In this document: piece after piece, positions 6,912 through 62,809 of the stretch | How the letters are laid out: the number at the start of each line of letters is the position of its first letter | Numbering within the stretch: the stretch's first letter is position 1 | Assembly (NCBI GenBank): GCA_030649165.1 | Contig: JAUSGG010000025.1 | Coordinates: 3,967 to 67,966 of the forward strand | Reading direction: 5' to 3' | DNA from: Armatimonadota bacterium | GTDB lineage: Bacteria; Armatimonadota; UBA5829; JAUSEB01 | DNA: 64,000 bases | Program-made: the position numbers and the translations under genes | The notes under the pieces: generated by a model | Databases searched by the model: none | Seen by the model: only the letters and a program-made list of their open reading frames with translations | Told to the model about the DNA's origin: nothing

Positions 6912-7045
6912 TTCTGACGACGGTCCAACTCAGAACTCAGCGCTCCTAAGGACAGCCGGTTTCGGGCCGGCGCTGGCTGCCTGCTTCGGCAGCGACGCTG
7001 CCGCTCTGCTACCGAAGGATCGGAAACACAGCTTTTCGATAGAGA

Positions 7046-7074
7046 GGCTTCGGCTTCAAAGAACAAGCCGAAGC
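7046..7074. repeat. hairpin repeat GGCTTCGGCTTCAAAGAACAAGCCGAAGC (10-bp stem); other copies at about 32390-32416, 37581-37610 and 41681-41710
   Basis: Perfect inverted repeat GCTTCGGCTT / AAGCCGAAGC seen at four intergenic sites. Confidence 0.7.
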
Positions 7075-7137
7075 ATCGACACTCAGCGCTCAGAACTCCC
7101 TACTTGCCGGGCCAACTGCCCGGGCTCGCTATCGCTT

Positions 7138-8082
7138 TCAGCAGCTTGAGCCTTCCTGGCTCCTGATGAACATCTCCGTGGTCGCCTGGTCCTTTACGCC
7201 GGTTGTCGCGCCCAATTCAGTTACGCAAAACGCGCCGACCGCGTTTGCGAACTTGCCGGTGCGCTCCAGGTCCCATCCGTTGACCAGGCCCGTGAGGAAT
7301 CCCGCCACGAAGCAGTCTCCCGCGCCAAGAGCGTCAATGGCTCGCACGTCAAACGGCTTTACAGACATTTCCGCCTCGCGGGTCCGTATGTAGCTTCCTT
7401 CCTCGCCCATCTTCAGGGCGACGGTCCCCACGCCCGCGTCGAGGAGCGCTTTGGCTATGTCGGCGGGCGACTTTTTCCCGGTCAGCATTTCGGCCTCAGC
7501 GATGCTCGGCAGGAAGTAGTCTATGTGCGGCAGGCAGGGGGCAAGGACCTTCATCCACTTGCCGGTGGCGTCCCAGCAGGTGTCGAGGCACGTGGTCACG
7601 CCAAGCGACTTCGCTTTTTTCAAGATGTTAGCGGTCGGTTGGCCGTCGATGTTGGGCATGAGGAAGCTGCCGGCCACGTGCAATATGCGGCTCTTGGCGA
7701 CAAGGTCCATGTCCACGTCGTCTTCGACCAAATCCCTGTTCGCGCCGAAGTAATGGAGAAAGCTGCGCTCGCCGTCGCTGTGCACCATCACCATCGTGGC
7801 TGAAGTGTTCGAGCGGTCGCTGCGGACGACTCCGCTGGGGTCGATGCCGTGGCTTTTCAGGCGGGAGATCATGAAGTCGCCGAAACCGTCGTTGCCGACC
7901 TTGCCGATGACGGCGACGTCCACACCGATTTTGGCAAGAGCGATGCCGGTGTTGGCGGCGCAGCCTCCTGTGTGAAGCTCCATTCGATCGACAAGCTCCA
8001 GCTCGCCGCGCCCCGGCCACTTATCGACCGGCTTGCCGACAACGTCGGCCACAAGAATCCCCAGACATACTACGTCGGACAT
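7138..8082 (-). CDS. PfkB-family carbohydrate kinase (ribokinase / 2-keto-3-deoxygluconate kinase-like)
   Basis: 314 aa. N-terminal GILVADVV...GG, and C-terminal DALGAGDCFVAGFL PfkB signature. Confidence 0.9.
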   Translation of the reverse strand: MSDVVCLGILVADVVGKPVDKWPGRGELELVDRMELHTGGCAANTGIALAKIGVDVAVIGKVGNDGFGDFMISRLKSHGIDPSGVVRSDRSNTSATMVMVHSDGERSFLHYFGANRDLVEDDVDMDLVAKSRILHVAGSFLMPNIDGQPTANILKKAKSLGVTTCLDTCWDATGKWMKVLAPCLPHIDYFLPSIAEAEMLTGKKSPADIAKALLDAGVGTVALKMGEEGSYIRTREAEMSVKPFDVRAIDALGAGDCFVAGFLTGLVNGWDLERTGKFANAVGAFCVTELGATTGVKDQATTEMFIRSQEGSSC

Positions 8083-10528: not shown

Positions 10529-13081
10529 CTACCGTTTCTTCTTGATTGGGGCGGCGAGTGGGGGCTTTTCGGTCCCGTTCGGGGTGAAGGTCTGTTTCGT
10601 GAGAAGAAGCGTGTCGATGGCCGCGTAGTACGGCGCGTCGGACTTGGAAACCTGCAAGGCTAACGTGTGCTGTCCGGGAGTCAGGCTGACGAGTCCTGCC
10701 CTGAACCAGGCTATGGAATCAGCGTACGGCGCTGACTCGGCGCTCGGGTCGATAGCCTGCCACGCGCCGCCGTCCACCGAGTATTCCAGCCCCGACGCCC
10801 CTGACCGGCCCGGAGGGGCCGCCGCCAGCCAGAAGGTGTAGCTTCCTTCGGACGGGGCGTTGAACGTAAAGGTAACGCCGTACGGCTTGACCGGAGGATC
10901 TTCAGACGTGGAGACCCGCAAATACCGCGCTCCGCTGCAACCGCCCAGAGCCGTGGCGCCGTCCAGATTATGGTCTCTTGCCGACTCAGCCTCTATCCAA
11001 ACATACTGGCTGATCGATGGAGCCAGGGCGCGCAGTTTGGCGGACGCCGACTCGTACGCCAGGAGTGGGTGGAAATCCATCAAAAGCTGCCTGGCTTGTT
11101 CGACGGACGCGGCGTAGCCGGAAACGTTGACTCCGGCCCGCGCGGCCGCTGTCACGGCGGCTTCGAGAATGTCTATCTGAGACTCGGCGATCTCGGTCGG
11201 GAATAACTGGTCCGGCGGCAGGCCGTAGACTAGAACCGGGGTCTCGGACAACTGCAGGGTCAGAACGTCCTTTTTCGGAGAGATTTGCGCGGCGGCCTTG
11301 CTCGCCTCAGAGACGCCGAACGTCTGTCCCCTCAGCTTGATCGTCACCCTGGCAGGCCCCTTGGCGGACCACAGAACGACGCCGTCCGCCGTGATCGGGC
11401 GCAGCTTGTTCGGAGCGGACAGCGCCAATGGCGTCTCGACGGGAGATCGGGCGTCGCCGGCCAGGGTGTAGCCAAAGATGTTCTCGCCTATCTGAATCGG
11501 CTGACCATACCGAGAGGTGGGAAGCCACCACGTATTCTGATCGACCTTCCTGACCCCGGCCCCAGTCAGGACGGAGTGCGGGTAGAAAAGGACATCAGGC
11601 GCGTAGTCCTCAACGGTCGAATCCAGTTGCTTACCGAAGTCGGCAACGGCGCTGAGAACCGGTTGGGGAGAGGCGGAACCCGGAGCGTCTCGCGGCAACT
11701 GGGCAAAGAAGCCTTTCGCGCCAATATCTTTCAGCCGGGCGAGCGCGCGGGGGATATCCGACACGTCGGCGCCGGGCGCGACGACGCCGATGAACCACAC
11801 GATCTTGCCGGAATCGAATGTCAGCGCGTACGCCTGTCCCGCGTTCGCGGTGTCGCCGTCCGAATCGCCGGACACGACCGCGCTCAACCCGTCAAATCCG
11901 CCGTCGTCGCGGTTGTTGGCGTAGATCGAATGATAGGAGTCGGCGGCGAAGACCACCGGAGCGTCGGCGCATCGTTTCAGGGCGTCGGCTATCGCGTTCA
12001 AAGCCTGTTGAATGGAGGCGTTGCGGAAGTCCAGGATGTCTTTCCACATCGCCGAAGCCGATATGTTGACTTCGAGATACGTATCAGTGGAGCGATCGAA
12101 CGCAAGACCGAGTCCTCTGCCCTCCCACCAGAGGGGTATCAGGCGCGCGGCCTGTTCATAGGATGCGTCATCGCTCCGGCCTATTCCCCAAGCGGAGTAC
12201 AGGGCCTCCGGGGCTCGATATTTCAGGCTCAACCAGCCCTCGAACTCAACATGAAAACTCTGAGAGGTGGGGATCGCATTGACCATGTCGCCCGCGGGAA
12301 CGACGCCTGCCGCCAGCGGCGAATAGAAGAACCTGAAACCCTCGCCGAATTCGATCTCGCGGAAGAAGTCGATCAGCCTGTCCCGGTATTCGTCGGCGCC
12401 CTGCCAGAGATCCGGCATCATCCCGCGTCCCGTCGCGATTTCCTTCGTTGGAAACAGCAGGAGGGCCCGGGTCTGCTCCGCGTCAAAGCTGAGTTTGAGA
12501 GTGGCCTTGTCGTTCGCGGCGCGTAGATAACCGGAGTCGATGGCCGTTCCGGTGACCGGATCGGCTATGACAAAGAACCCGCTTTGCGCGTGTGGAAGGT
12601 CGATGGTAAGCTGACCGGACTCCGTCAGTCTTGGGATTCTATACTTTCTGGGGCAGACGACGATTCCGGTCGCGCGGACCGCGGGGCCGTCGTCAAGCTC
12701 GATCCCATAGGAGAACCCCTGCTGTTCGAGATGATCTATCAGCTTTTGCCAGCTCGAAGTAGGAAAACTCGTGGCGGGGCCGGGACCGCGAACAAGCAGG
12801 TCGGCTATACCGGCGGTCTTCAGTGAGACCAGAGCGCCGGCGTCTTTCTGCCAGTCCGACTCGGTCTGACTCGAAAGGAACGCGGAGGTGAACACGACGC
12901 CGGCGGGAATGTATGCCTGTTCGTCCCACATCAGCGCGCGGGATTCGTTCACGCGCCAGGGGTGACGGCCTGCGTCACGGTCGACGAAGACGCCCTTGGC
13001 GCCAGGTTGCCCCGCCGCCAGCGCAGCTCCGCGGGACGCGGCAAGGGCCAGGATAATTGTCAAAGCGAGCCAGTTTTTCAT
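10529..13081 (-). CDS. secreted hypothetical protein, probable glycoside-hydrolase-like with C-terminal carbohydrate-binding-like domain
   Basis: 850 aa. N-terminal signal peptide MKNWLALTIILALAAS. Long uninterrupted ORF. Function call is weak. Confidence 0.5.
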   Translation of the reverse strand: MKNWLALTIILALAASRGAALAAGQPGAKGVFVDRDAGRHPWRVNESRALMWDEQAYIPAGVVFTSAFLSSQTESDWQKDAGALVSLKTAGIADLLVRGPGPATSFPTSSWQKLIDHLEQQGFSYGIELDDGPAVRATGIVVCPRKYRIPRLTESGQLTIDLPHAQSGFFVIADPVTGTAIDSGYLRAANDKATLKLSFDAEQTRALLLFPTKEIATGRGMMPDLWQGADEYRDRLIDFFREIEFGEGFRFFYSPLAAGVVPAGDMVNAIPTSQSFHVEFEGWLSLKYRAPEALYSAWGIGRSDDASYEQAARLIPLWWEGRGLGLAFDRSTDTYLEVNISASAMWKDILDFRNASIQQALNAIADALKRCADAPVVFAADSYHSIYANNRDDGGFDGLSAVVSGDSDGDTANAGQAYALTFDSGKIVWFIGVVAPGADVSDIPRALARLKDIGAKGFFAQLPRDAPGSASPQPVLSAVADFGKQLDSTVEDYAPDVLFYPHSVLTGAGVRKVDQNTWWLPTSRYGQPIQIGENIFGYTLAGDARSPVETPLALSAPNKLRPITADGVVLWSAKGPARVTIKLRGQTFGVSEASKAAAQISPKKDVLTLQLSETPVLVYGLPPDQLFPTEIAESQIDILEAAVTAAARAGVNVSGYAASVEQARQLLMDFHPLLAYESASAKLRALAPSISQYVWIEAESARDHNLDGATALGGCSGARYLRVSTSEDPPVKPYGVTFTFNAPSEGSYTFWLAAAPPGRSGASGLEYSVDGGAWQAIDPSAESAPYADSIAWFRAGLVSLTPGQHTLALQVSKSDAPYYAAIDTLLLTKQTFTPNGTEKPPLAAPIKKKR

Positions 13082-16730: not shown

Positions 16731-16833
16731 TGTTTTTAAGCTACCTATGCTTCGGGATACGTCATCCCGAAGCCGCGAATTCTATCCCTCTCCAGGCGCT
16801 TTGCCTGGAGCAAACTAATGGAGAGACCCCGAT

Positions 16834-17049
16834 ATGGCAAACCGATGTGTGATCTGCGGCAAGGGGCCCCAGTTCGGACAGAACATCAGACACGTTCACT
16901 CCGGGTCCTGGGCTCTTCGCGCCCCAAGGACGAAGCGCAGGTGGCTGCCCAACCTGCAGAACATCAGAATTGTGCGGAACAACACGCCGAAGCGCGCGAA
17001 GGTCTGCGCCAAGTGTATGAAGGCCGGCAAAATCGTCAGGGCCACGTAG
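16834..17049 (+). CDS. rpmB: 50S ribosomal protein L28
   Basis: MANRCVICGKGPQFGQNIRHVHSGSWALRAPRTKRRWLPNLQN matches the L28 pattern (C..TGK.P..GN..SH....T.R.F.PNL). Confidence 0.85.
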   Translation: MANRCVICGKGPQFGQNIRHVHSGSWALRAPRTKRRWLPNLQNIRIVRNNTPKRAKVCAKCMKAGKIVRAT

Positions 17050-17278
17050 CCCGGAAAAAGCCCCATCAACAACAAAAGGGAGAACTCCCGATAAACCGGG
17101 ACGTTTTCCCTTTTTGTTTGCCGGTTGCCGCAGCGAACTGTGTCAGCCAAGAGGATTATACATCAAGCCGGTTCGGTTTTCAAGCATTTGAGTCGGGGAA
17201 TGAGTCGGAGGAGTCGGAAGAGTCGAAGGATTCCGCGGGATCCTCAAGCGCCGAAAGAACGCCAAGGAGGCCTTATCA

Positions 17279-17848
17279 ATGAGTGCGAAGCGTTTCGCTG
17301 ACGGACAGGCGCGTGAACTCCTAAGGAACTACATTGCTACTCGAAATAGGGCAGACGCGGAACCTCTGATCTCCAGCGCCATGCCACTTATCCGGTTGCT
17401 GGCGGGACGTTTTCACCGGCTGGTACCGAAGATCGCGCTGGACGACTTCATCGAGGAAGGCAAGATCGGCGCAATCACAGCCGCGGATCTGGCGGGGCCG
17501 GATTTCTACGATGTGGGCGCGTCCACGGACCCGCGGATGTATGCCGCGCCCTTTATCGCGGGGCATTTAGTGTCGTTCCTGCGCGATTTGGGGATCATCA
17601 CCAGACCTTCCGAAACTGAGGATCGAGTGCGACACGTTGTTGACGCGGCGCTAGCCGATCTCGCGAAGGAGTTGGGCCGATTTCCTACAGATGAGGAGCT
17701 AGCGGCCAGTATGAGTGTAAGTGTCGAGCGATTGCGACGCCTGCTGTTGATCTGCTGCGCACACTGGAACAGTTCGTCATACTGGCGGGGACACGCGGAG
17801 CAGGAATCGCAGCGATTGCGCGACGCGCGGACGGTCGATCCCGAGTGA
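17279..17848 (+). CDS. sigma-70 family sigma factor-like protein, apparently lacking region 4
   Basis: Region-2-like DDFIEEGKIGAITAADLAGPDF and region-3-like PTDEELAASMSVSVERL. No HTH region 4 before the stop. Confidence 0.4.
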   Translation: MSAKRFADGQARELLRNYIATRNRADAEPLISSAMPLIRLLAGRFHRLVPKIALDDFIEEGKIGAITAADLAGPDFYDVGASTDPRMYAAPFIAGHLVSFLRDLGIITRPSETEDRVRHVVDAALADLAKELGRFPTDEELAASMSVSVERLRRLLLICCAHWNSSSYWRGHAEQESQRLRDARTVDPE

Positions 17849-17891
17849 TCGGAACCGGAGATTGCGGCTGAATGCCAGACGCTTCGCTCCT

Positions 17892-18839
17892 CTATCGCAG
17901 TGGACCCAGGAGCGCGTGGGGAAACCATTCGAGGAAGCGCTCGGCGTCCACGCAGGCGCCGGCGCGATGACGTCCGGACGGATCGGGCGTGAAAGTCGTG
18001 TATCGATTGCAGTCGATATGCATGAGGCCGGACTCGTACCTCACGAATCCCCGACCACATGCTTCAGCGGCCGCAAGCGCATCGTGAGGACACGTGCCCG
18101 TTATGGGCTTGTTAAAGCTCTCGGATCTGTGCTCCAACCAGACCTTGAGCATGCTCCCCACCAGCACGGCTTCGGGGGGGCCATCCGAGTCAGTCAGAGC
18201 CCGCACCGAGGAACCATCCCACCACACTTGCGTGGTGACGTCGTTGGTCACCGCGGATATCCGCGCCTCCGATTCGAAAACCTCTCTCGCCGCCCGCAAG
18301 TCCGCCCACACATTGTGCGAAGGCTCGGACCGATATTTCGTGCCTTGCTGAAGGTTTTCCGGCGCTCTCGCCGGAAAGGTCACTCCGCATCCCATGAAGT
18401 ATATTGCCTTTGCCTTTTCGGCCACTTGCGGGTTTTCGCGGATGGCCATCGCGACGTTGGTCAGCGGTCCGAGGGCGACCAGAGTGACCTCTCCGGGATT
18501 ACGGACCACCGTGTCCGCGATGAACTCGTTTGCGCGCGTCCCTATGCCCAGGTCGGTCAGATCGGCGCGACTCTCGTCGTCATCGAGGATACCCTTGCCC
18601 TCCGTGCCCGTGTGCCACACCTGGGGCCACCGACTGAGCGGCTGCGCGCTTCCGGCAAACACGGGAACGTTGAGGCCGCGCGCGTTTATGATCTTCTTGG
18701 CGATCTTTGCGCGCACGTCAACGCAGCCGTAAGTGGTCGTGACGCCAAGGATGTCAACCTCGGCCATGTGGAGCAGCAGCAACAGAGCAAGAGCGTCGTC
18801 GATGTCAGAACCGATATCGGTATCTATGAGGAGCTTCAT
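17892..18839 (-). CDS. inosine-uridine preferring nucleoside hydrolase
   Basis: MKLLIDTDIGSDIDDALAL is the IU-NH aspartate cluster. The start is trimmed from the 420-aa track ORF to this Met. Confidence 0.85.
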   Translation of the reverse strand: MKLLIDTDIGSDIDDALALLLLLHMAEVDILGVTTTYGCVDVRAKIAKKIINARGLNVPVFAGSAQPLSRWPQVWHTGTEGKGILDDDESRADLTDLGIGTRANEFIADTVVRNPGEVTLVALGPLTNVAMAIRENPQVAEKAKAIYFMGCGVTFPARAPENLQQGTKYRSEPSHNVWADLRAAREVFESEARISAVTNDVTTQVWWDGSSVRALTDSDGPPEAVLVGSMLKVWLEHRSESFNKPITGTCPHDALAAAEACGRGFVRYESGLMHIDCNRYTTFTPDPSGRHRAGACVDAERFLEWFPHALLGPLR

Positions 18840-19111
18840 GTCCGGGTAAACCAGCAATCTCTCGGTCGTGAGGAACCGCTGGTTTCGGGATTTCCGGGTT
18901 GGGAGCGAGGTTGGGCTGTAACCGCACGAGTGTGAAGCCCAACCCTCAAATCCCGAAACACCGGGGTGGTTCCTTTCCGATATAACCCCGCACGCGGGTC
19001 GGTCGCTCGGAACGACCACCTGCCCGCAGGGGAAACCGCAGGGGAAACTCTTGCCAACCTCTCCCGCAACGGGTATTATACCACAAACAAACCGCGAAGG
19101 GGGGTGTCCAC

Positions 19112-20170
19112 ATGGCCAACTCGCCAGGCGAAGGCGCCGATGTGCGTCTGACAACTCTGTCTCACGGAGCCGGGTGAGCGTGCAAGCTCAGTCCTGAGCA
19201 ACTCTCGCAGGTCCTGCGAGACATGCCGCCGGTTCTGGATCAGAATGTGCTGGTCGGACTGACCACGGCCGACGACGCCGCCGTGTACAAGGTCAGCGAT
19301 GAGTTGGCGATCGTGCTCACGGTGGATTATTTCACGCCGCTGGTGGACGACCCCTACGATTTCGGGCGCATAGCCGCGGCCAACGCTCTCAGTGACGCCT
19401 ACGCGATGGGAGCAAATCCCGTAATTGCTCTGAACATCGTGGGGTTTCCGGTCAAAACAATGTCGCTGGAGTTGCTGAAAGACATCCTTCGCGGCGGGAG
19501 CGACGTCGCCGCCCAGGCCGGCGTGAGCGTTGTGGGCGGGCACTCGATCGACGATCCCGAGCCCAAGTACGGCATGGTCGTGCTTGGATTCGTCCACCCG
19601 GCGCAGGTATTATCGAACGCTACAGCCAGGCCCGGCGACGCGCTGTTCCTGACGAAGCCTTTGGGCACGGGGACAATCGCGACCGCTATCAAGAACGATA
19701 TCGCGCCGAGGGAGGTTGTCGATCGCGCCGTCAGTCTAATGACCACGCTCAACAAGTCCGCGGCGGAAGCCGCGAAACGAGTCGGAGTGAGCTCGTGCAC
19801 CGATGTGACGGGATTCGGGTTCCTCGGTCATCTGCATGAAATGACGTGGGCGAGCGGAGTAGGCGCGGTTATCCAACTGCCGGCGGTCCCGGCCATCGAA
19901 GGTGTTCGGGAGCTCCTGGCGCGGGACATGGCCCCCGGCGGCGCCTATAGAAACCGCGAGTTTCTGGAGAATTGCGGCGTACTGGAGTGGGGCGAGGGTA
20001 TAAGTGAGGAAGATAAGCTTCTGCTGTGTGATCCACAGACCTCCGGAGGGCTGCTGATAAGCGTTCCTGAAGCCCGCGCGGACGAGCTGCATCGGGAGCT
20101 GACGGGCGCGGCGAGGGTCGGGCGCATAGTGGAAGACGCGGATAGAAAGATTCGCGTCCGGGGCGGTTGA
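19112..20170 (+). CDS. selD: selenide, water dikinase (selenophosphate synthetase), selenocysteine-containing
   Basis: The track ORF 19223-20170 is SelD minus its N-terminus. Reading upstream in frame gives MANSPGEGADVRLTTLSHGAG-U-ACKLSPEQLSQVL, with TGA at 19175-19177 aligned to the catalytic Cys/Sec of SelD (E. coli HGAGCGCKISPKVL). A hairpin CUCGCAGGUCCUGCGAG lies 28 nt downstream. Confidence 0.85.
19186..19222 (+). promoter_or_regulatory. SECIS-like element within selD
   Basis: GCTCAGTCCTGAGC followed by CTCGCAGGTCCTGCGAG. The GCAGGUC..UGC apical region resembles the E. coli fdhF SECIS. Confidence 0.5.
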
Positions 20171-20344
20171 TGGTTGGTGGTTGGTCGTCGGTGGTTTGCC
20201 GGATTCGGAAATCGCCACCCGTCTGCAACCCAACGGGAGTTAGCGGTTGGCCATCACTTCAACCCTCACCCCAGCCCTCTCCCTGCCAGGGAGAGGGAGT
20301 TACCGGCGACTCCGCGGAACTATTAACAATGGCTGGAAAATATC

Positions 20345-20373
20345 TTGACAGACAGACGTAGGAGCGCTATAGT
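20345..20373 (+). promoter_or_regulatory. consensus sigma70 promoter (TTGACA-N17-TATAGT)
   Basis: TTGACA at 20345-20350, a 17-nt spacer, and TATAGT at 20368-20373. Confidence 0.55.
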
Positions 20374-20379
20374 TATTTT

Positions 20380-20496
20380 AGATGACGCTCTGAACCAGCT
20401 ATGCGAGCGTCCATAACGGCTATTGCCGGACCAGCGCTCCCTCATTTGACCGGCAGTACCTGCCCCCAGCCTGAAGACGGTGGGGGCTCTTTTTTG
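20380..20496 (+). ncRNA. candidate small RNA (~117 nt) between promoter and intrinsic terminator; family unknown
   Basis: No ORF. Internal stems GACGCUC/GAGCGUC and GCCGG/CCGGC. Terminator stem GCCCCCA / UGGGGGC at 20462-20487, followed by UCUUUUUUG. Confidence 0.3.
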
Positions 20497-20548
20497 CTTT
20501 ACCTGGATGACGCCAACAGGGGACCAACAACTAACAACCAAAAACTAA

Positions 20549-20590
20549 AAAAGCCTCCGGAGTAAACTCCGGAGGCTTAGCGTCAACTAA
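20549..20590 (-). terminator. intrinsic terminator of the SLH-porin gene
   Basis: Perfect hairpin GCCTCCGGAG-TAAA-CTCCGGAGGC, followed on the minus strand by a T-run. Confidence 0.6.
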
Positions 20591-20599
20591 GTCAGAGAC

Positions 20600-22465
20600 T
20601 TAGAACTTGACCATGAACTGAGCCACGGCAACATCGCCCTTGTAGTCGGAGCTGTCGTAGCTGTGGCCATCTGAACCGGTATCGAAATCAACGATCTGAT
20701 AACCGATCTTAGCCATCATATTGGGGTTGAACTGGTGGCCGAGGCCGATGGTGATGTACTTCTCATCGGTATCGGTCAGTCCGCTGGGCTCCCACTTAAC
20801 CCACTCCAGACCGAGGTCTATGGAGGTGGAGGAGCTCATGCCCCACTTGAGGCCGGCCGTGTAGTACTTGACGTCGTCGTCCTCTTCGTCGATCTCGCTG
20901 GGCAAGCCAACGACATCGTCCTTACCGGACAGGAACTCGGCGGCAGCAACCAGGCTGATGTTCGCGCCGAGACCGTACTTCAGGTCAACATAAGGACCCT
21001 CGATGTTGGTCGGGTTGGTCCACCGGCCCAGCTTATCCCAGGAACCGGGAGCTGTGAAGTTGTGACCGATGCTCTTCCAGCCAGCCTTCAGGCCGAGAGA
21101 ACCGAGGCCGATACCAAGGTTCGCGTCTAGGGCTGTATTATCGTCATCCAGCACGGTGGTATCGGTCAGGGTGGTCTCTGCCCACTCGCCGCCGATCGTG
21201 ATATTGCCGAGCTGGAAGTTCAAGTCGGCGCCAACTAACTGCGCCTGCTCGACGACGCCGTCCTCGGAACCGCGCAGATAGGTGCCGCTCAGGGTGCCCT
21301 TGAGCGGGGTGCCAATCGTTATGCGGCCACCAGCGATCTGGTTGATGGAGCCCAGTCCACCAAATGCCGCGCCACCATTGTCGTTGAATACGCCTGTGTC
21401 ATAAAGACCGGCGTCGGACTGCGAGGTCAGACCATTGACAAGGAACGCGTTCATGTCGGTCTTGGCGGCAACAAGCTGAAGGCCCACGCCTCCAAACTTC
21501 CACGCGCCCTTGATACCGTCAAGCGGATAATCGCCCGTGTCGGTCTTCTGGTTCACCGTATAGCTGTCCACGTCGATCTTCTTGACAGTGTAGGGTGACC
21601 ACATCATCGGGAATCGACCAACCGTCAGCGCTCCGGGACCGAGATTCCAGTCCAGGTACGCATAGTACGGGAACACGATCTGGCCTTCCGCGTCCGTGGG
21701 ATCGGGCAGATCCGACTGTGTGGTAGCGCGCTCGCCACCGTCGTAGTCGTCAACCCCGTTCAAGTAGTTCAGATAATCGCCGGCGCTGAGTAGAGCGTGC
21801 GCCGTTGCCTTATCCGAAATCCGGGCGTCGATTGTGATGTCGATCTCCTTGACCATGGTGATGTCCTGGAGCAGATCGTCATCGCCGTGCAGATCGCGCT
21901 CGTCGCGATCAACCGCGGAGCCGTCTCTCTCTCTCTCGAAAACGCCAGAGACATTGACGGTGCCGCCGATCTTAACTCGGCGAACTTCCTCTTCCAACGC
22001 GGTCAACCTCTTATTGAGGTCGGCCACGTCTCTCTTCAGGGCGTCGATATCCACGCCCATCGCGGTCAGCTCGTCCTTGAACTCGTCCACCATCTTCTGG
22101 ATGGCGGCGAGGTCTGCCTTTGTCACCTCGGGCTTCGCGGCCTCGAGTGTTGCGACTCTTGCCTTAACAGCGTCAACTTCCGCCTGGCTAACGCCGGCCG
22201 GGGGAGTGGGAGGTACGGGCTTGATGGCCTGGTCAACGATCACGGGGATCGCGCGAGCCAAAGCCTGGGCAAACTCGAATCGAGTCATAGCCCTCTTGCC
22301 GCCGAACGTCCCATCCGGGTAGCCGACGATGATTCCGTCCTTCACCAACTGGTCCACCGCCTGGTACGCCCAGTGATCGGTGGGGACATCGGTGAACGGA
22401 CCCTGTGCGAATACCGGGCTGGCAAGAAGCGCCAGCATCACGATAGCACATAGTGTCTTCTTCAT
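20600..22465 (-). CDS. SLH-domain outer-membrane porin (OmpM/Slp-like): SLH, coiled coil and C-terminal beta-barrel
   Basis: Signal peptide. SLH motif FTDVPTDHWAYQAVDQLVKDGIIVGYPDGTF. Heptad coiled coil at 100-170. Alternating-residue beta-strands to the C-terminal F. Confidence 0.85.
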   Translation of the reverse strand: MKKTLCAIVMLALLASPVFAQGPFTDVPTDHWAYQAVDQLVKDGIIVGYPDGTFGGKRAMTRFEFAQALARAIPVIVDQAIKPVPPTPPAGVSQAEVDAVKARVATLEAAKPEVTKADLAAIQKMVDEFKDELTAMGVDIDALKRDVADLNKRLTALEEEVRRVKIGGTVNVSGVFERERDGSAVDRDERDLHGDDDLLQDITMVKEIDITIDARISDKATAHALLSAGDYLNYLNGVDDYDGGERATTQSDLPDPTDAEGQIVFPYYAYLDWNLGPGALTVGRFPMMWSPYTVKKIDVDSYTVNQKTDTGDYPLDGIKGAWKFGGVGLQLVAAKTDMNAFLVNGLTSQSDAGLYDTGVFNDNGGAAFGGLGSINQIAGGRITIGTPLKGTLSGTYLRGSEDGVVEQAQLVGADLNFQLGNITIGGEWAETTLTDTTVLDDDNTALDANLGIGLGSLGLKAGWKSIGHNFTAPGSWDKLGRWTNPTNIEGPYVDLKYGLGANISLVAAAEFLSGKDDVVGLPSEIDEEDDDVKYYTAGLKWGMSSSTSIDLGLEWVKWEPSGLTDTDEKYITIGLGHQFNPNMMAKIGYQIVDFDTGSDGHSYDSSDYKGDVAVAQFMVKF

Positions 22466-23069: not shown

Positions 23070-24221
23070 TTGGAGGCTCCGTTGTCCCGAACCTCGGTTT
23101 ACGTCGAACAGATATCCCCGCGGTCAACTCCCGAACAAGTGTCCGAAGGAATAGCCCGCCTGCTCCATCCGTTCGATCTGGCGCGAATGGCGGATGGCAA
23201 GACGGTCCTGATCAAACCAAATCTTTCCGGCGAGTCGGGCCCGGCCAATACTGATCCACGCGTGATCTACGGCGTCGTAAGGGCATTCGAGCAGGCCGGG
23301 GCGAGCGCGCTGGTTGGTGACGGATCGATTATCGGCGTAGATACCATGTCCGTGATGAGAGAGATCGGCTTGATCGACGCGCTCAAGGGCACACGCGCGG
23401 AGATTGTAGACCTCAAGACCGGCAGATATGTGGAGACTCGGGTGCGCCGCGGCAGGTGCGCGAAGCAGGTCGCGCTTGCCGAAGCCGCGTCCGCGGCCGA
23501 TCTGATCGTCAGCGTCGCCAAGATGAAAACTCACGACGCGACCGCGGTAAGCCTCTGTATGAAGAACCTGAGCGGCCTTATGCACGAATACGATATGCTG
23601 CATTTCCATCACGTCAACGTCAGCGAGTGCATCGTGGACCTGGTGGCGACGGTCAAGCCGGCGCTGAACATAGTCGATGGCTTGATGGCAATGGACACGT
23701 TCGGCGCGGGCCCCGTCGAGATGGGCTGCGTGATAGCGGGAACGGATCCCGTCGCGGTGGACGCAACAGCCTCGCGCGCGATGGGTGTGGACCCGGCGGG
23801 CATATACGCGGGCACGCTCGCCGAATCCCACATAAAACGAGCTCACGAACGCGGCCTGGGCGAGATGAAGGATATCGAGGTAGTCGGCGATTTGCCGAGC
23901 GCGCAATTCGCCCCGCCGCCGGCGAGTCTGAACGAGATATCGATTCCCGACGGGATAGAGATCATCGACGGCGACCCCTGCCCGGCGTGTATAGCTATGC
24001 TGGCCACCGTGCTGCAGAAGTCGCAGATCAGCAATAACAAGCTCGGCAATACGGTGATACTTGTCGGTCCGAACGCGCCGCCCCCGGAGAAGACGAAGGG
24101 CAGGACCATCATTATAGGCAACTGCCTTCACAGGCTGCAATCGACCACGCAGGGGAGCGTTTTCGTGATAGGCTGCCCGCCCAACGCTACTTACGACGTG
24201 CTGCCGGTTCTGGAGGCGTGA
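23070..24221 (+). CDS. DUF362 domain protein
   Basis: 383 aa. DGKTVLIKPNLSGE...DGSIIGVD is typical of DUF362. Confidence 0.55.
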   Translation: MEAPLSRTSVYVEQISPRSTPEQVSEGIARLLHPFDLARMADGKTVLIKPNLSGESGPANTDPRVIYGVVRAFEQAGASALVGDGSIIGVDTMSVMREIGLIDALKGTRAEIVDLKTGRYVETRVRRGRCAKQVALAEAASAADLIVSVAKMKTHDATAVSLCMKNLSGLMHEYDMLHFHHVNVSECIVDLVATVKPALNIVDGLMAMDTFGAGPVEMGCVIAGTDPVAVDATASRAMGVDPAGIYAGTLAESHIKRAHERGLGEMKDIEVVGDLPSAQFAPPPASLNEISIPDGIEIIDGDPCPACIAMLATVLQKSQISNNKLGNTVILVGPNAPPPEKTKGRTIIIGNCLHRLQSTTQGSVFVIGCPPNATYDVLPVLEA

Positions 24222-24451
24222 GAAAGAGTCGAAGGAGTCGAAAGAGTCGGAGGAGTCGGACGGCAAAGGGGCGGGGCTGACGTGACCAAGATCGCGCGGG
24301 AACCGTATACGCAGTGAGTCGAAGTGGATGGTGACAGGGGGCGTCCGCCGCGGGAACTGACTTCGACGATATCCGATGGGTTGGTTGTAGGAGACCGTTC
24401 CCGCAAGATAGAACCTTAGAACCCTTAGAACCCTGGAACCCTGGAGAAAGA

Positions 24452-25543
24452 ATGGACCTGCTTTACGAGTCATTTATGGGAATGGGACCGAAGCGGATTG
24501 CGCATTACGAGCACTGGTCGTGTCCCGATGCTGAGACGCAAATTACCGGGGTCGATTATTACGATCACCCTAAGCTGTGTCGGGAGAGGATGCGCGAACT
24601 GTACCCCGTGCTCAACCTGGCTGTCCCCGCGGACGACACGCCCGTCCCACGACCCCAACTGGGGAGTGATGACGACAACTCCAGCGTGACGCGGGACGGC
24701 AGGCAGGCGGTGCGCTGGGGGACCGGCGAGACGTGGCACTGGGACTGGGGTCGCAACTTCAAGACGGTCGAGGAAGCGTTTGCCTTCTCGCCCCTGAAGC
24801 ACGCTGATTTCACTAATGTCCCCGTCGTCGAATCACGCGACTACTCCGACGAAGAAAAACTCTACGAGTCCTACCGTTCCCTTTTCCCCGCCGAGCACGG
24901 CGACACGCCCCCTGATGGCCAGTTTACCGCCGCCGGCTTCTATAACACGATGTTCATGTGGCCGCTGCTCACTTTCGGGTGGGAGTTCTTCCTTGAGATG
25001 TGCCTGGAACCGCGTTTCGAGCGAATAATGGACGAGTTCGCCGAGATAAACCGCCGCGTCTTCCGCTCATTTGCTCGCCTGCCGGTCAAGTTCGTGATCT
25101 GCCACGACGACATTGTCACCGCGCGCGGCCCGGTCTGCTCGCCCGATTGGATGAACAAGTTCATCTTCCCCCGATATGAGGAGTTCTGGGGAATAGTCAA
25201 GGCGGCAGGGAAAGAGGTCGTTTTCGTCGCCGACGGCTGCCTGGACGCCTGCGCGGATGACATCTTCGCGTGCGGGGCCAGGGGCATCATCACCGAGCCC
25301 TTTACCGATTTCAAGGCGATCGCCCGCAAACACGAAAACTGCTGCCTTGCCGGCGAAGGGGACAACCGCGTCCTCAGCCGCAATGACCCCGATGAGATCC
25401 GCGCGATGGTAGAAAGCATGGTCGAGACCGCCCACATCAGCGGCGGATATATGATGTCCGTCGGCAACCACATTCCCTGGAACGTTACGCCGGAAGGCGT
25501 CAAGCGGTATCTGGATTTGTGCGATAAGCTAGCGCACCGGTAG
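24452..25543 (+). CDS. uroporphyrinogen decarboxylase (URO-D)-family protein (MtaA/CmuA-like methyltransferase fold)
   Basis: 363 aa. TIM-barrel-like periodicity. Family call from general similarity; moderate. Confidence 0.5.
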   Translation: MDLLYESFMGMGPKRIAHYEHWSCPDAETQITGVDYYDHPKLCRERMRELYPVLNLAVPADDTPVPRPQLGSDDDNSSVTRDGRQAVRWGTGETWHWDWGRNFKTVEEAFAFSPLKHADFTNVPVVESRDYSDEEKLYESYRSLFPAEHGDTPPDGQFTAAGFYNTMFMWPLLTFGWEFFLEMCLEPRFERIMDEFAEINRRVFRSFARLPVKFVICHDDIVTARGPVCSPDWMNKFIFPRYEEFWGIVKAAGKEVVFVADGCLDACADDIFACGARGIITEPFTDFKAIARKHENCCLAGEGDNRVLSRNDPDEIRAMVESMVETAHISGGYMMSVGNHIPWNVTPEGVKRYLDLCDKLAHR

Positions 25544-37637: not shown

Positions 37638-38501
37638 TTAGAACTCCGGCGGCAATCCCCTAATCTGCGCATACGAGAACACCGGCCCGTCCACGCACAC
37701 GAACAAGTGCCCAATGTTGCAGCGGCCGCATTTACCGACGCCGCATTTCATCTTCATCTCGAGCGTGGTGTAGATCTGCTCGTCGGTGAAGCCCAGAGTC
37801 GCAAGGTTCTGGAGGACGAACTTGATCATGATCGGCGGGCCGCAGGTGATGGCGATGGTGTTGTCCGGTTTCGGGGCCAAGTCGTTGAGGTAGGCGGGGA
37901 CGAAGCCGACGTTGTGCTGCCAGCCTTCCTCTTCCTTGTCGATGGTCAGGAAGAGGTTGGTGTTTTTGGAGTTGCGCCACGCGTCGAACTCGGTCTTGTA
38001 GCAAAGCAGGTCGGATGAGCGCGCGCCGTAGATCACGTCCACGCGGCCGTAGTCGTCCCGGTTGTCCAGGCAGAAGTTGAGCAGCGAGCGCAGCGGAGCC
38101 ATTCCGATGCCTCCCCCGATGAACAGCAAATCCTTGCCCTTCCATTCCTGATACGGGAACCAGTTGCCGAACGGGCCGCGGATGCCGACGACAGCCCCCT
38201 CGCTCATCTCGTGCAGCGCGTCGGTCAGCGAGCCGACCTTGCGCACGGAGAACTCGATGGAGCCGGGGCGTGTGGGCGTTGAGGCGAGACAGAACGTGGC
38301 CTCGCCGACGCCGAAGACGGAGACCTCCTGGAACTGGCCCGGCTTGTAGGTGAACTTCTCGCGCATTTCCTCGTCCTGGAAAACGGCGCGGAAGGTCTTG
38401 GTGTCCCAGGTCTCTTCGACGATCTCCTCGATGGTCGCCAAAAGCGGCTTGTACGGGTTCTGCTTCATCTGCTCGATGGTTGCTGGTTGGGCGCTACTCA
38501 T
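37638..38501 (-). CDS. FAD/NAD(P)-binding [2Fe-2S] oxidoreductase, FlxA / sulfhydrogenase gamma (HydG) / AsrB-like
   Basis: FNR-like fold with a C-terminal CGVGKCGRCNIG cluster motif. Confidence 0.85.
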   Translation of the reverse strand: MSSAQPATIEQMKQNPYKPLLATIEEIVEETWDTKTFRAVFQDEEMREKFTYKPGQFQEVSVFGVGEATFCLASTPTRPGSIEFSVRKVGSLTDALHEMSEGAVVGIRGPFGNWFPYQEWKGKDLLFIGGGIGMAPLRSLLNFCLDNRDDYGRVDVIYGARSSDLLCYKTEFDAWRNSKNTNLFLTIDKEEEGWQHNVGFVPAYLNDLAPKPDNTIAITCGPPIMIKFVLQNLATLGFTDEQIYTTLEMKMKCGVGKCGRCNIGHLFVCVDGPVFSYAQIRGLPPEF

Positions 38502-58520: not shown

Positions 58521-59750
58521 CTATCTCTCCTGTCTTTCTCCCTTCCGAAGTCTTCTCCGAGCCGCTCCAAGAGCGGTGAGTATGCCGATGGCGACGCCTG
58601 ACAATGTCGATGGCTCAGGCACGGGGCCCGGACGGACAAAGGCCACTCCTTCGGGATAACCGAAGCCCGTCAGCCGGTTCACGTAGCTGAACTGGTCACC
58701 AGATATGTTTATCCAGGACAGCGAATTCTGTTCAGCGCTCGTCACCAGCAGTTGAGTCCCGTCGGGCGAGACGGAAAGACGATGAAAGGCGCTGCTTCCC
58801 GTGAGCTCCACAATGTCGGTGTGCGTCAATCCGGTAGCTTTACTTAAAGTGTATCGATGAATCTTGTTCGTGCCCTTTTCGGCAATAAACAGGTGGTCGG
58901 CCACGGCGGCCAGGGAGTCCGGTTCGACCGAGCCAATGTCATAAGAGGTCAGGTCTGCTATGCCGGTTTCGGGATCTATGGCGGCGAGTCTGTAGGCCCC
59001 GACGCCGGATCTGAAGTCCGTGAAGACATATCGGCCCAGGTCGGTTTCTGACAGCGCAAGGTCCGTGGGGCCGCCCTCAACTGAGACGTTCATTCTCCCT
59101 CCGTCGCCGAACACCGTAACGCCCGAGACGCCGGTGACGTTCCGGTAGTTGATCCCTTCGTTGGCAACGAATACCTTGTCGGAGCCGCCCTTCATAGATC
59201 GAACGACGAGAACCCCTTCGGGATTACGGGAGGCGGTGTGGTTAGGAGGAACGGACTCGCTGTCGTCCCAGGTAAGCGCTTCACTTCCATAGTACATCCA
59301 GGCGTTATTGTTCTTCCGGAGTTCCCACATGGTTCCTGTTCTACGGCCCGTAACATACAGCCAATCGTCCCCGCTCCCGACGGCCCCCCATTTGGCCGAC
59401 CCAACTCCGTTTGGAAGGTTGATGTGCTGCTGGACCTCCATAAGTACGGCCGAGGTTCCGGTGTCAACAGCTTTGAGGATCGACACGTAACCGCTGTCGT
59501 TGACTACGTAGACATTCTGGCCGAACGTCGTTACGCCGCGCGGCCTTCCGCCGACGGAGTACGGATTGCCCACTGTTGTCCAACCGCCGCCTGCATACTT
59601 GAGAAGTGAGACGGTTCCGTTACTGTAATTGGCGACAACCGAGTATTGCTGGGCGAAGCCTGGGATGTGGAAACCAAATAATAGAATAACAGCCGCGGCA
59701 GCGACCGCTGAGCAAAGCTTTGCCCGCCTGGCGGTAAGCATTATGCGCAC
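58521..59750 (-). CDS. PEP-CTERM beta-propeller protein
   Basis: Signal peptide. Beta-propeller-like repeats. C-terminal VPEPSTLSGVAIGILTALGAARRR. Confidence 0.7.
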   Translation of the reverse strand: MRIMLTARRAKLCSAVAAAAVILLFGFHIPGFAQQYSVVANYSNGTVSLLKYAGGGWTTVGNPYSVGGRPRGVTTFGQNVYVVNDSGYVSILKAVDTGTSAVLMEVQQHINLPNGVGSAKWGAVGSGDDWLYVTGRRTGTMWELRKNNNAWMYYGSEALTWDDSESVPPNHTASRNPEGVLVVRSMKGGSDKVFVANEGINYRNVTGVSGVTVFGDGGRMNVSVEGGPTDLALSETDLGRYVFTDFRSGVGAYRLAAIDPETGIADLTSYDIGSVEPDSLAAVADHLFIAEKGTNKIHRYTLSKATGLTHTDIVELTGSSAFHRLSVSPDGTQLLVTSAEQNSLSWINISGDQFSYVNRLTGFGYPEGVAFVRPGPVPEPSTLSGVAIGILTALGAARRRLRKGERQER

Positions 59751-60042: not shown

Positions 60043-62280
60043 TTACCACCGCAGCGAGATCAGGTGGTCCCCCGTGGTGAGACTCTCGATGGTGACCTCG
60101 TAGGCCGCGCCCAGATCCGTAACTGAGAAGTCCACGTTGCGCCCGTCTACCATCGCTTCGTTGGGCGTGACTTTGGTGATAAAGGATATTCGTGACCGGG
60201 TGAAGGCCGAGATGTCGGCGCGGCCGGCCCCGTCAACGACGGAAACGACGTAAACCGCATCGACGATGTCGTAGAGTTTCGAGCGTTTGCCGACCCGTCT
60301 GAACAGCCGGAACGAGAGCGGCTCCAGATCAAGTGTGGAACTGGAGTCCCGCGGCAGCAGTTTGCCGTTGACGACGTCCCACATGACGCAGATGCCGTGC
60401 GGCAGCGTCGCCCGTGTGGGCGCGTCCGACGCATTGGCGACTACGACATACCCGGCCCGCGTTTCGCTCCAGAGCAATCCTTCGCCGACACCCTGAATCG
60501 CCGGCGGCGAGGTCCCCAGTCGGTGAAGCGCGTATTTGACTATTTGCGCGGCGATCCCCGCGGTGGATTCGGAAAGCCCCAATCCGCAGAAGATACCGAG
60601 TCCGTCAGCGCCGTTGCTCTTGATGACAACCGGCGTTCCCGTGCGCTCATCCGCGTAAATAACGGCGCTTCTGGAACCGAATATGCGCTCAACGTTAGCG
60701 ATCCTGTCCACCGAAACCTCGACTTGCCGGCCGAGGAAGGCGGTCCTCGTGGCGCGCGATACGTGAGTGAGCTTGGCCTGACCGTTGGGCAATTCCACCC
60801 GCGGCTCGGCGTGCTGGCGCACCCCTATCGTCCGGAGGATTTGGGGGAACGCGTCGGCCAGCGGCTGCTCGCCGGGAGTCTCTTCGTCGGCGGAGAACCC
60901 GAGTCCGCCGCCGAATACCAGCACTGCCCGCCCGGGCGCGGCCTGCCACCACTGCCGGAGTATCCGCGCCTGCGCAATCGAAATCGGGAAGCGCTCGTCA
61001 AGAATGACGACCCGCGTCTCCGGCGCGCTTTCCAGTCCCTTGGCCAGCGAATCGGCGTACAGCGTGCGCATCGGCAGCTTTTCGTTGAACATGAGCTGCT
61101 TCGCAATCGCCCAATACGACCGCCATGCCGTTTCGTACGTATAAGGCGCGGCGTGCCGGCCTCCTCGATAGGAAAACAGGAAGGCGACCGGCGAAACGGG
61201 GTTGCCCAGGCGGTTGACGAACCGGTTCACCGGCGTCATGAACTCCATGTGAGCGCTGTCGGCGCCGTACCGCTGGCCGTACCAGTGCCTGGTCATGCCG
61301 TTTGGCGCGGCGGCCAGTGACGCCAGGAGGGCCTTTTGGAAGAACTCCAGTGGAATCAGAGGAAGCTCGGACGTTGCCGCCGATACCCGGAATTCCCAAC
61401 TATCGGGATTGTTCGTGTGCTCGTCTACGGGATTCGTGACGGCCATTACCGGCTTGCCGGTCGCATGGGCGAGGACCTCGGGATAGTAAAGAAGAGGCGA
61501 TCTCTCCATATCGTCACCCGTGCGCATTGTGCCCACGTAGACGTTGTCCGGCTGCATTCGGACAACCAGGAAATCGACATCGTCCAGACCCGCGATCCGC
61601 CCGATGTCGCAGGACGTGTTCAGAGTTCCCTCGGGGGTGTTCTCAATGGTGGGGATGAAGAACCAGGGCATGATACCTGTCTTCGTGGCTCCGACTGACT
61701 TGGCATGAGCGGCCAAATCTTCATAGAAACGGACAAGCACGTCGGCCTTCAGCTTTTGGACTTTCAGATACCCCTCGGTCTCATCCCGTTCCAGGGGATA
61801 GTCAACGTTCGGATATTCCTCTTTGAACAGCGCGTAAAACCGGTCCTTGTGGCCGGGGATATCCACCCTGTACATAGGCTCTTCGAACACGACCCAGTCA
61901 TAGCCGTAGTCCTCGACGAAGACACGGGTTAGTTCCTTGAGAAAGGCTTTCCACTTTTCCGATGCGAACGACGCGAAGAAGCTGCCGTCTACAAACATGT
62001 CGGGGGCGTTGTCCAGGTGGTACTGGGCCTCGTCGATGTCGACGGCCTCGGGGTGAGCCACGGTCGTCTGTATTTGCACGCACGCGGGCAGACCGCGTTT
62101 GTGCGCATCCTGGGCGAAAGAGGTGTAGGCTTGTCTGCACTCGTCGAACACCTCTTTCGGTGGTTGCGCATAATAGGCGGCGTAGGCGACATCGAAGCCC
62201 CAACGGTCCAGGTCTTCGAAGTACTGGGCCCGATATTGCTCGTCCTTCAGTCGATTACAGCCAACAGGCAGTGCATTCAT
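60043..62280 (-). CDS. hypothetical glycoside-hydrolase-like protein (intracellular)
   Basis: Start at MNALPVGCN (62280) behind GGAGGGGA. Long ORF with TIM-barrel-like N-terminal half. Weak call. Confidence 0.5.
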   Translation of the reverse strand: MNALPVGCNRLKDEQYRAQYFEDLDRWGFDVAYAAYYAQPPKEVFDECRQAYTSFAQDAHKRGLPACVQIQTTVAHPEAVDIDEAQYHLDNAPDMFVDGSFFASFASEKWKAFLKELTRVFVEDYGYDWVVFEEPMYRVDIPGHKDRFYALFKEEYPNVDYPLERDETEGYLKVQKLKADVLVRFYEDLAAHAKSVGATKTGIMPWFFIPTIENTPEGTLNTSCDIGRIAGLDDVDFLVVRMQPDNVYVGTMRTGDDMERSPLLYYPEVLAHATGKPVMAVTNPVDEHTNNPDSWEFRVSAATSELPLIPLEFFQKALLASLAAAPNGMTRHWYGQRYGADSAHMEFMTPVNRFVNRLGNPVSPVAFLFSYRGGRHAAPYTYETAWRSYWAIAKQLMFNEKLPMRTLYADSLAKGLESAPETRVVILDERFPISIAQARILRQWWQAAPGRAVLVFGGGLGFSADEETPGEQPLADAFPQILRTIGVRQHAEPRVELPNGQAKLTHVSRATRTAFLGRQVEVSVDRIANVERIFGSRSAVIYADERTGTPVVIKSNGADGLGIFCGLGLSESTAGIAAQIVKYALHRLGTSPPAIQGVGEGLLWSETRAGYVVVANASDAPTRATLPHGICVMWDVVNGKLLPRDSSSTLDLEPLSFRLFRRVGKRSKLYDIVDAVYVVSVVDGAGRADISAFTRSRISFITKVTPNEAMVDGRNVDFSVTDLGAAYEVTIESLTTGDHLISLRW

Positions 62281-62442
62281 GTATTCCCCTCCCATAGTTT
62301 GCGCGAAAACAGTAACCTTCCCAAAGCGCACCGGCGGGCTCTTCCCGTTTCCGTACGTGGAACGTAGCGCAACCTTGCGCTGGGGAGGGGAGGGCAAAAG
62401 GCCAAATGAGGCATCCCTGCATCCTACTTCTAAACTACATTG

Positions 62443-62533
62443 TGGCGGAGGGAGTGGGATTCGAACCCACGGCCCCGATGAATCGGGACGACGGTTTTCA
62501 AGACCGCTCGATTAAACCGCTCTCGCATCCCTC
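62443..62533 (-). tRNA. tRNA-Ser (anticodon UGA), type II with long variable arm
   Basis: Minus strand: GGAGGGATGCGAGAGCGGTTTAATCGAGCGGTCTTGAAAACCGTCGTCCCGATTCATCGGGGCCGTGGGTTCGAATCCCACTCCCTCCGCCA. Acceptor GGAGGGA/TCCCTCC, anticodon loop CTTGAAA, T-loop GGTTCGAATCC, discriminator G plus CCA. Confidence 0.85.
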
Positions 62534-62809
62534 CGCGTCGATACATTATACAAGCGAGCCCACTTAATGTCAATTAGTGTCAGCGGAGCGGTTCTCGGTT
62601 GTCGATTGACGGTTGTCAGTTGGTCTCTACTCGTTCCTCCCCCGTTTTTTCGTTGACATCCTCCCGGTCGAGCCTGTATAACATGTTTGGTCAGCGCGTG
62701 AGGTTAAAGCCTCACGCTATCATAATAAAAGCAAGCTAAAGCAAGCTTCGGGCGCCGAATCCGCGCAACAGCGCGATAATTGTAACAGTTCAGGAACCGA
62801 GAGAAGATT

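Follow-up and report, generated by a model that had tools for sequence, protein, structure and literature searches.

The selD locus

A 64-kb stretch of DNA from an Armatimonadota bacterium (contig JAUSGG010000025.1 of assembly GCA_030649165.1; hereafter the window, meaning the whole stretch that was analyzed) contains a selD gene whose reading frame is crossed by a TGA codon. Read from ATG 19112 through this TGA to position 20170, the gene is predicted to encode full-length selenide, water dikinase (SelD, selenophosphate synthetase), with selenocysteine (Sec) at the TGA. The features of the locus, including two hairpins (H1 and H2) that bear on whether a Sec insertion sequence (SECIS) is present, are listed here from 5' to 3'.

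19051..19079, plus strand: promoter-like TTGCCA-17 nt-TATTAT, 10 of 12 matches in a consensus scan; a pattern match, with no evidence of function
19097..19104, plus strand: strong Shine-Dalgarno sequence, AAGGGGGG, 7 nt before the ATG at 19112
19112..20170, plus strand: full-length selD coding sequence, 352 codons including one predicted Sec codon; stop codon TGA at 20168-20170
19112-19114, plus strand: selD start codon ATG, which opens a frame with one internal TGA
19175..19177, plus strand: in-frame UGA, predicted Sec, residue 22, aligned to the catalytic Cys17 of E. coli SelD
19186..19199, plus strand: hairpin H1, GCUCA-GUCC-UGAGC, 5 bp; may be an accessory or spacer helix, and alone does not fit the bacterial SECIS (bSECIS) model
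19203..19221, plus strand: hairpin H2, UCUCGCAG-GUC-CUGCGAGA, 8-bp stem with a GUC apical loop; predicted SelB-binding element
19223..19225, plus strand: internal ATG (Met38), the start in the mechanical list of open reading frames (ORFs); not the true start, and without a Shine-Dalgarno sequence

Translated from ATG 19112, the frame reads MANSPGEGADVRLTTLSHGAG-[TGA]-ACKLSPEQLSQVL..., and the stretch that follows MANSPGEGADVRLTTLSHGAG-[TGA] is also given as ACKLSPEQLSQVLRDMPPVLD... A first-pass annotation of this DNA had proposed that selD extends upstream of its listed start and is read through the TGA, and translation of 19112-20170 in this way bears the proposal out. For profile scoring, the TGA of the 352-residue product was replaced by Cys. 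The read-through product then scored 401.6 bits against the SelD profile TIGR00476 (cutoff 125; alignment from residue 12) and 379.2 bits against NF002098 (cutoff 299; residues 10-346). Both alignments start ahead of the TGA, at residues 10-12, and they extend to position 341 of a 347-position profile. The end coordinate of 20222 given by the annotation is 52 nt beyond the stop codon.

In E. coli SelD, Cys17 and Lys20 are each essential. Among solved structures, this protein (3u0o, a Cys form) was matched at E = 2.4e-83 with residues 10-323 aligned, and residue 22 of the window protein, the TGA, falls on Cys17 while Lys25 falls on Lys20. The glycine-rich loop is present, with SHGAG-U-ACK aligned to SHGAG-C-GCK, so the pattern SHGAG-C/U-xCK and the catalytic Lys are common to both proteins. 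The difference lies in the codon, which is TGC for Cys17 and UGA in the window. It is this N-terminal loop that holds the catalytic Cys or Sec and the Lys in SelD (PMC7595633, PMC13188914).

The two candidate start sites differ in their surroundings. Pairing with the anti-Shine-Dalgarno sequence was calculated at -11.7 kcal/mol before ATG 19112 versus -3.3 kcal/mol before ATG 19223. The promoter-like site at 19051-19079 ends 33 nt upstream of the selD ATG, and no further in-frame ATG, GTG, or TTG occurs from this box to 19112. The product from ATG 19223 has 315 residues and is without the catalytic Sec/Lys loop; the earlier statement that the ORF list deprives selD of its catalytic N-terminus was therefore accurate.

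The UGA codon in related selD genes

Related loci were fetched from species-representative genomes (80 loci) and from metagenomes (80 loci), in both cases among the matches listed. The comparison below uses the 121 loci, the window included, in which the G-x-x-x-K motif could be located automatically. The equivalent of codon 22 was TGA in 81 of them, TGC in 29, and TGT in 11, and nothing else was found there, as would be expected if the TGA stands at the catalytic Cys/Sec position, where the first-pass annotation had placed it. Loci with the TGA form (hereafter Sec forms, as opposed to Cys forms with TGC or TGT) span the Actinomycetota, Gemmatimonadota, Chloroflexota, Nitrospirota, Deltaproteobacteria, Bacillota, Marinimicrobia, and others.

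Identity to the window protein was at most 57% in the genome and metagenome loci, among the matches listed. A word-indexed search of a collection of 5.8 billion proteins found closer relatives at 69-74% identity and nothing above 74%; named matches in this collection, at 56-58% identity, include Armatimonadota, Solirubrobacterales, and Thermoleophilaceae. With no relative above these identities, the source lineage is a sparsely sampled one. Most of the top protein matches are 318-322 residues long and begin with MPP[VI]LD.NVLVGL, which is the truncated start of the 19223 ORF, and two others begin with MSPELLAQVLR.

The DNA of the five nearest relatives was fetched from independent ENA, JGI, and Logan assemblies. 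In all five, the homologous codon is TGA and lies within LSHGAG-U-ACKLSPE[QL]L[S/A]QVLR, and the downstream hairpin is present as well. A plausible N-terminus precedes the TGA in these relatives, for example MANTPDKGARGVRLTTLSHGAG. Each of the five is stored as an N-terminally truncated protein with the TGA just upstream, an outcome that the first-pass annotation had anticipated for standard gene callers, and several more of the top protein matches are probably truncated likewise. Among the fetched loci, the one that we call L161 is syntenic with the window: both carry ADH, a protein of about 850 residues, argS, CBS/DUF1385, selD, an SLH protein, and URO-D. Given this shared gene order, we take L161 to be of the same lineage.

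A hairpin found in Sec forms

H2 has a calculated energy of -11.0 kcal/mol; it begins 25 nt after the UGA, and its loop lies 33 nt after it. As summarized in Fig. 2 of PMC13188914, the bSECIS consensus model calls for an apical loop of 3-9 nt above an upper stem of 4-16 bp; a G as first or second loop nucleotide, usually with G or U after it; a UGA-to-loop distance of 16-37 nt; and a free energy no higher than -7.5 kcal/mol. H2 lies within all four of these constraints, with a 3-nt GUC loop on 8 bp, a G-U start, 33 nt, and -11.0 kcal/mol. The model as given in that summary (bSECISearch) has no counterpart to H1, the extra helix between the UGA and H2.

The comparison between Sec and Cys forms is more informative than the fold of a single sequence. 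The region after the codon is free of indels, and codon alignments without gaps could be made for 39 Sec forms (A1) and 28 Cys forms (A2). In the Sec forms, 83.2% of cells in the H2 helix (columns 29-36/40-47) were paired, versus 31-46% when the 3' arm was slid by 1-3 nt. The covariation score of the helix was 0.349, compared with 0.174 ± 0.020 in shuffles, and none of 500 shuffles reached it; double-sided changes were present in five of the eight pairs. The same columns in the Cys forms were 47.3% paired, no better than the 33-51% of the slid registers. When all loci were pooled and unique sequences compared, 54 of 77 Sec forms but none of 40 Cys forms had an uninterrupted stem of 6 bp or more in the H2 register (Fisher p = 4e-15); the RNA of E. 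coli selD, itself a Cys form, lies outside that comparison. The loop in those 54 Sec forms was always GUN (GUC in 37, GUU in 14, GUG in 2, and GUA in 1).

Compensatory changes in the stem cross amino acid changes. For example, GCG...CGC encodes Ala...Arg, GCU...AGU Ala...Ser, GCC...GGC Ala...Gly, and GCA...UGC Ala...Cys, and the window has a compensated variant of its own, UCG...CGA (Ser...Arg). Within the lineage of the window, columns 31/45 are U-A in the window and G-C in the related locus L163.

The first-pass annotation had likened this hairpin to the SECIS of E. coli fdhF, and the likeness is real at the apex and does not extend to the spacing. The fdhF apex, GCAGGUCUGC, is nearly identical to GCAGGUCCUGC of the window, both apical loops contain G-U, and the window shares the fdhF-type feature of a GGUC-type apex on a GCA/UGC stem. 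After its Sec codon, fdhF reads UGA-CACGGCCCAUCGGUUGCAGGUCUGCACC, with the hairpin about 11 nt and the loop 18 nt after the UGA, whereas the corresponding distances in the window are 25 nt and 33 nt. The window loop is of 3 nt (GUC) closed by a G-C pair, as opposed to the 4-nt GGUC loop of fdhF. The minimal fdhF SECIS has a bulged U in its stem; the 8-bp stem of the window is perfect, without a bulge. H2 is thus a predicted bacterial SECIS but not one of fdhF geometry.

The second hairpin and the predicted SelB-binding element

H1 lies between the UGA and H2, has a calculated energy of -4.9 kcal/mol, and has its loop 13 nt after the UGA, which places it outside the bSECIS ranges for both spacing and energy. 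Hairpins resembling a SECIS had been described downstream of the TGA in the first-pass annotation; both exist, but the fit to the model, together with Sec-specific covariation, belongs to H2, and H1 lacks the required spacing and energy. The register of H1 varies between lineages, and in the closest relatives the hairpin has low stability or pairs in another way (-4.6 to -7.8 kcal/mol). RNAalifold returned no consensus structure for the 39 aligned Sec forms, probably because the H1 register differs between lineages.

The sequence around H1 also offers a competing fold. UGAGC at 19175-19179, which contains the Sec codon, can pair with GCUCA at 19186-19190, and GCUCA can alternatively pair with UGAGC at 19195-19199; only one of these helices can form at a time. 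The minimum free energy fold picks the helix that sequesters the UGA, and UGAGC/GCUC pairing is likewise seen in many Sec-form relatives.

In each of the 23 Sec forms without H2, a hairpin is present whose apex is some 13-22 nt past the UGA. Among the Sec-SelD loci without H2 are L023, L025, L034, L037, L048, L057, L063, L069, L073, L116, and L156, and these have a hairpin of the type GGUCC-N3-5-GGACC with its apex about 18 nt past the UGA. Their named sources include Dehalococcoidales, Desulfo- lineages, and Bacillota. This pattern in the sequences suggests that at least two SECIS architectures may exist within the SelD family.

We consider it very likely that selD in the window is decoded with Sec and that H2 (19203-19221) is its SECIS. 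Several observations weigh against this reading. Folding of the 66-nt region compared with dinucleotide shuffles gave only a modest z of -1.5 to -1.7, so the significance of the hairpin rests on the comparison with other loci. The spacing of 33 nt is near the top of the published range of 16-37 nt and far from the 18 nt of fdhF. H2 overlaps the conserved peptide motif QVL, and coding constraint accounts for some of its sequence conservation, though not for the Sec-specific pairing. In Rfam, a tRNA was the only match at the gathering threshold in the window, and 19050-19350 gave nothing even with E relaxed to 10. We know of no Rfam model for a SECIS in the selD coding region, so this null says little. 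Within the 64-kb window, where about 45 ORFs were compared with Pfam or NCBIfam and an RNA search was made, tRNA-Sec, selA, and selB were not found; this result is confined to the window and has no bearing on the rest of the genome. Finally, Sec forms have more stable hairpins in the H1 region than Cys forms do (median -9.8 versus -5.4 kcal/mol, p = 2e-7); given this Sec enrichment of H1, the helix that contacts SelB may be H1 or H2.

This last point leads to the best-surviving alternative, that selD does encode a selenoprotein but that SelB binds H1, or a composite of H1 and H2, and not H2 alone. Beyond the greater stability of H1-region hairpins in Sec forms, the apices of the 23 forms without H2 lie near the fdhF spacing, and the H1 loop of the window, GUCC, begins with GU as well. 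However, H1 of the window falls outside two of the four published criteria, and its register is unconserved across lineages and its pairing weak in the closest relatives, while the register of H2 is fixed, its loop always starts with GU, and its stem shows compensatory changes. On balance, we regard an H1 or composite element as unlikely.

A related possibility gives each helix its own role. Both helices are Sec-specific, and the single-hairpin consensus model, as summarized, describes no second helix. It is conceivable, though still doubtful, that a large multi-phylum clade of Sec-SelD uses a two-helix SECIS, in which H1 would be a structured spacer of variable register that positions the invariant GU-loop H2 for SelB. 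If this were true, the long distance from the UGA to the loop of H2 would be only apparent.

Other explanations for the TGA

The remaining explanations dispute Sec decoding itself. The TGA could have arisen through faulty sequencing or assembly, or a TGC or TGT codon could recently have mutated to a nonsense codon, so that the locus would be a Cys-form selD or a pseudogene. A single base separates TGA from TGC or TGT, and Cys occupies the codon in 40 of the 121 loci. However, the same TGA is present in five independent assemblies of the closest relatives, which removes both sequencing error and private mutation as explanations. As counted above, 54 of 77 Sec forms and none of the 40 Cys forms carry the hairpin; the window has it, with its own compensated variant, and the remaining frame is intact and scores as full-length SelD. 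We therefore find an error or recent mutation extremely improbable.

Alternatively, the TGA could end a short upstream peptide, with the functional product being the 315-residue protein from ATG 19223. This is the mechanical ORF, and the nearest database relatives are stored in that form. Such a protein would be without the glycine-rich loop that bears the catalytic Sec/Cys and Lys (PMC7595633). In addition, no Shine-Dalgarno sequence precedes 19223 (-3.3 versus -11.7 kcal/mol at 19112), and the ATG is only 2 nt past the 8-bp hairpin H2. The SelD profile already aligns from residue 12, within the 21 codons that precede the TGA, and these codons are conserved in relatives. There is very little chance that the short product is the functional one.

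It is similarly hard to credit that the UGA is decoded as one of the standard amino acids Trp, Gly, or Cys, through a reassigned code or near-cognate suppression. TGA-sense codes do occur in some uncultivated bacteria, but of the 28 genes in the window with family support, 12 end in TGA, among them selD, where the stop coincides with the end of the profile alignment; this excludes a genome-wide TGA-sense code. Global reassignment would explain neither the presence of the TGA exactly at the Cys/Sec site nor the Sec-form-specific hairpin.

Selenium-related genes and the hdr/flx cluster in the window

The only tRNA in the window is a tRNA-Ser(UGA) at 62443-62534 on the minus strand, 92 nt long and with a long variable arm; the anticodon of tRNA-Sec would be UCA. 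An ORF of 621 residues at 20600-22465, about the size of SelB, was considered as selB and ruled out, being an SLH-domain surface protein.

The first-pass annotation had raised the possibility of further selenoproteins among hdr/flx-type genes. The window does contain such a cluster, with the following features.

37638-46036, minus strand: hdrCBA-flxDCBA-type cluster, complete; all Cys forms, no recoded TGA
45197-46036, minus strand: hdrC, Fer4
44300-45193, minus strand: hdrB, CCG
41753-43744, minus strand: hdrA, an uninterrupted 663 residues with no TGA
40492-41001, minus strand: flxD/mvhD, FlpD domain; own ATG at 41001 and a Cys-form CNWCSY motif
39691-40458, minus strand: flxC
38494-39531, minus strand: flxB, Fer4_22
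37638-38501, minus strand: flxA, FAD/NAD-binding

HdrA and FrhD, the delta subunit of F420-reducing hydrogenase, are known selenoprotein families (PMC1794560, Table 1), and the FlpD domain of flxD is related to FrhD. In the window, hdrA and flxD are both Cys forms, so the expectation did not hold for these genes. An ORF of 152 residues lies between hdrA and flxD at 41020-41478; it is hydrophobic and has no family match. The TGA at 41022-41020 on the minus strand, where this ORF is in frame with FlpD/MvhD, was considered as a second selenoprotein site and rejected, because translation shows a normal stop codon at the end of a small, hydrophobic membrane protein. A scan of the whole window for pairs of ORFs bridged by a TGA was too noisy at 59% GC to be useful.

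Neighboring genes and other features

The surroundings of selD differ in places between the window and L161. Where L161 has only the L28 gene between CBS/DUF1385 and selD (6938-7653), the window carries an insertion at 16818-19154. The insertion contains a 154-residue ORF, a sigma factor of the SigB/F/G-FliA type (17279-17848), and a divergent inosine-uridine nucleoside hydrolase on the minus strand within 17892-19154. A plus-strand ORF at 17862-18935 that overlaps the hydrolase has no family match and is probably spurious. Downstream of selD there is a 430-nt gap (20171-20599) in which a promoter-like TTGACA-17-TATAGT with 11 of 12 matches lies at 20345-20373 on the plus strand, with no obvious gene after it. 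The gap also contains, on the minus strand and after the SLH-protein gene, a strong terminator-like hairpin with a 12-bp stem and a T-run (20578-20551). The equivalent of this gap in L161 (8721-10169) holds a Cytochrom_NNT (multiheme cytochrome) gene that is absent in the window.

Two genes of the URO-D family (uroporphyrinogen decarboxylase/methyltransferase-like), at 24452-25543 and 46526-47584, have weak Pfam matches of 48 and 44 bits. One of the two adjoins hdrC, and the first (24452-25543) is at a syntenic position in L161. Four large minus-strand ORFs have no Pfam match, namely 10529-13081 (850 residues), 23124-24473 (449), 58521-59750 (409), and 60043-62397 (784). The 850- and 449-residue ORFs are also without an NCBIfam match, and the 850-residue ORF is kept at the syntenic position in L161 (844 residues, no Pfam match).

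Discussion

SelD and FdhA are the most widespread bacterial selenoproteins, with 38 Sec-SelD sequences already counted by 2006 (PMC1794560), and SelD is the second largest prokaryotic selenoprotein family (PMC13188914). Sec-SelD is handled as routine by selenoprotein prediction pipelines (PMC12013277). The selD gene of the window is therefore a textbook case of a known family and is not different in kind from other Sec-SelD. Like the Sec-SelD proteins of Haemophilus influenzae, Aquifex aeolicus, and many Deltaproteobacteria, Clostridia, and Actinobacteria, its product belongs to the TIGR00476 family and has a UGA at the same catalytic codon of the glycine-rich loop, in the motif G-U-x-x-K. In those genes the SECIS is directly downstream of the UGA, inside the coding region, and the window has a candidate at that place.

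In the mechanism that we propose, translation would initiate at ATG 19112, and at the UGA of 19175-19177 Sec would be delivered by SelB in competition with release factor 2. The UGA at 20168, which is without such a hairpin element, would terminate translation. From established knowledge of the bacterial Sec pathway, we infer for this gene that SelB binds, that Sec is actually inserted, and that the genome encodes selA, selB, and selC outside the window.

The gene also has consequences for annotation. It should be annotated as 19112-20170, with codon 22 as a translation exception, and not as 19223-20170. Standard gene callers remove the catalytic loop, which may mislead functional annotation and homology-based surveys of selenium use. 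As for the RNA, the contrast in the hairpin between Sec and Cys forms is a clean case of RNA structure selected within a coding region, while what is known of Sec insertion itself is unchanged.

For the biology of the source organism, the selD gene justifies a directed genome search for selA, selB, selC, and other selenoproteins. The organism is a probable Sec-decoding bacterium. On a weaker reading, its lineage may keep the Sec machinery mainly or only for SelD itself, a self-referential arrangement that has already been discussed (PMC1794560).

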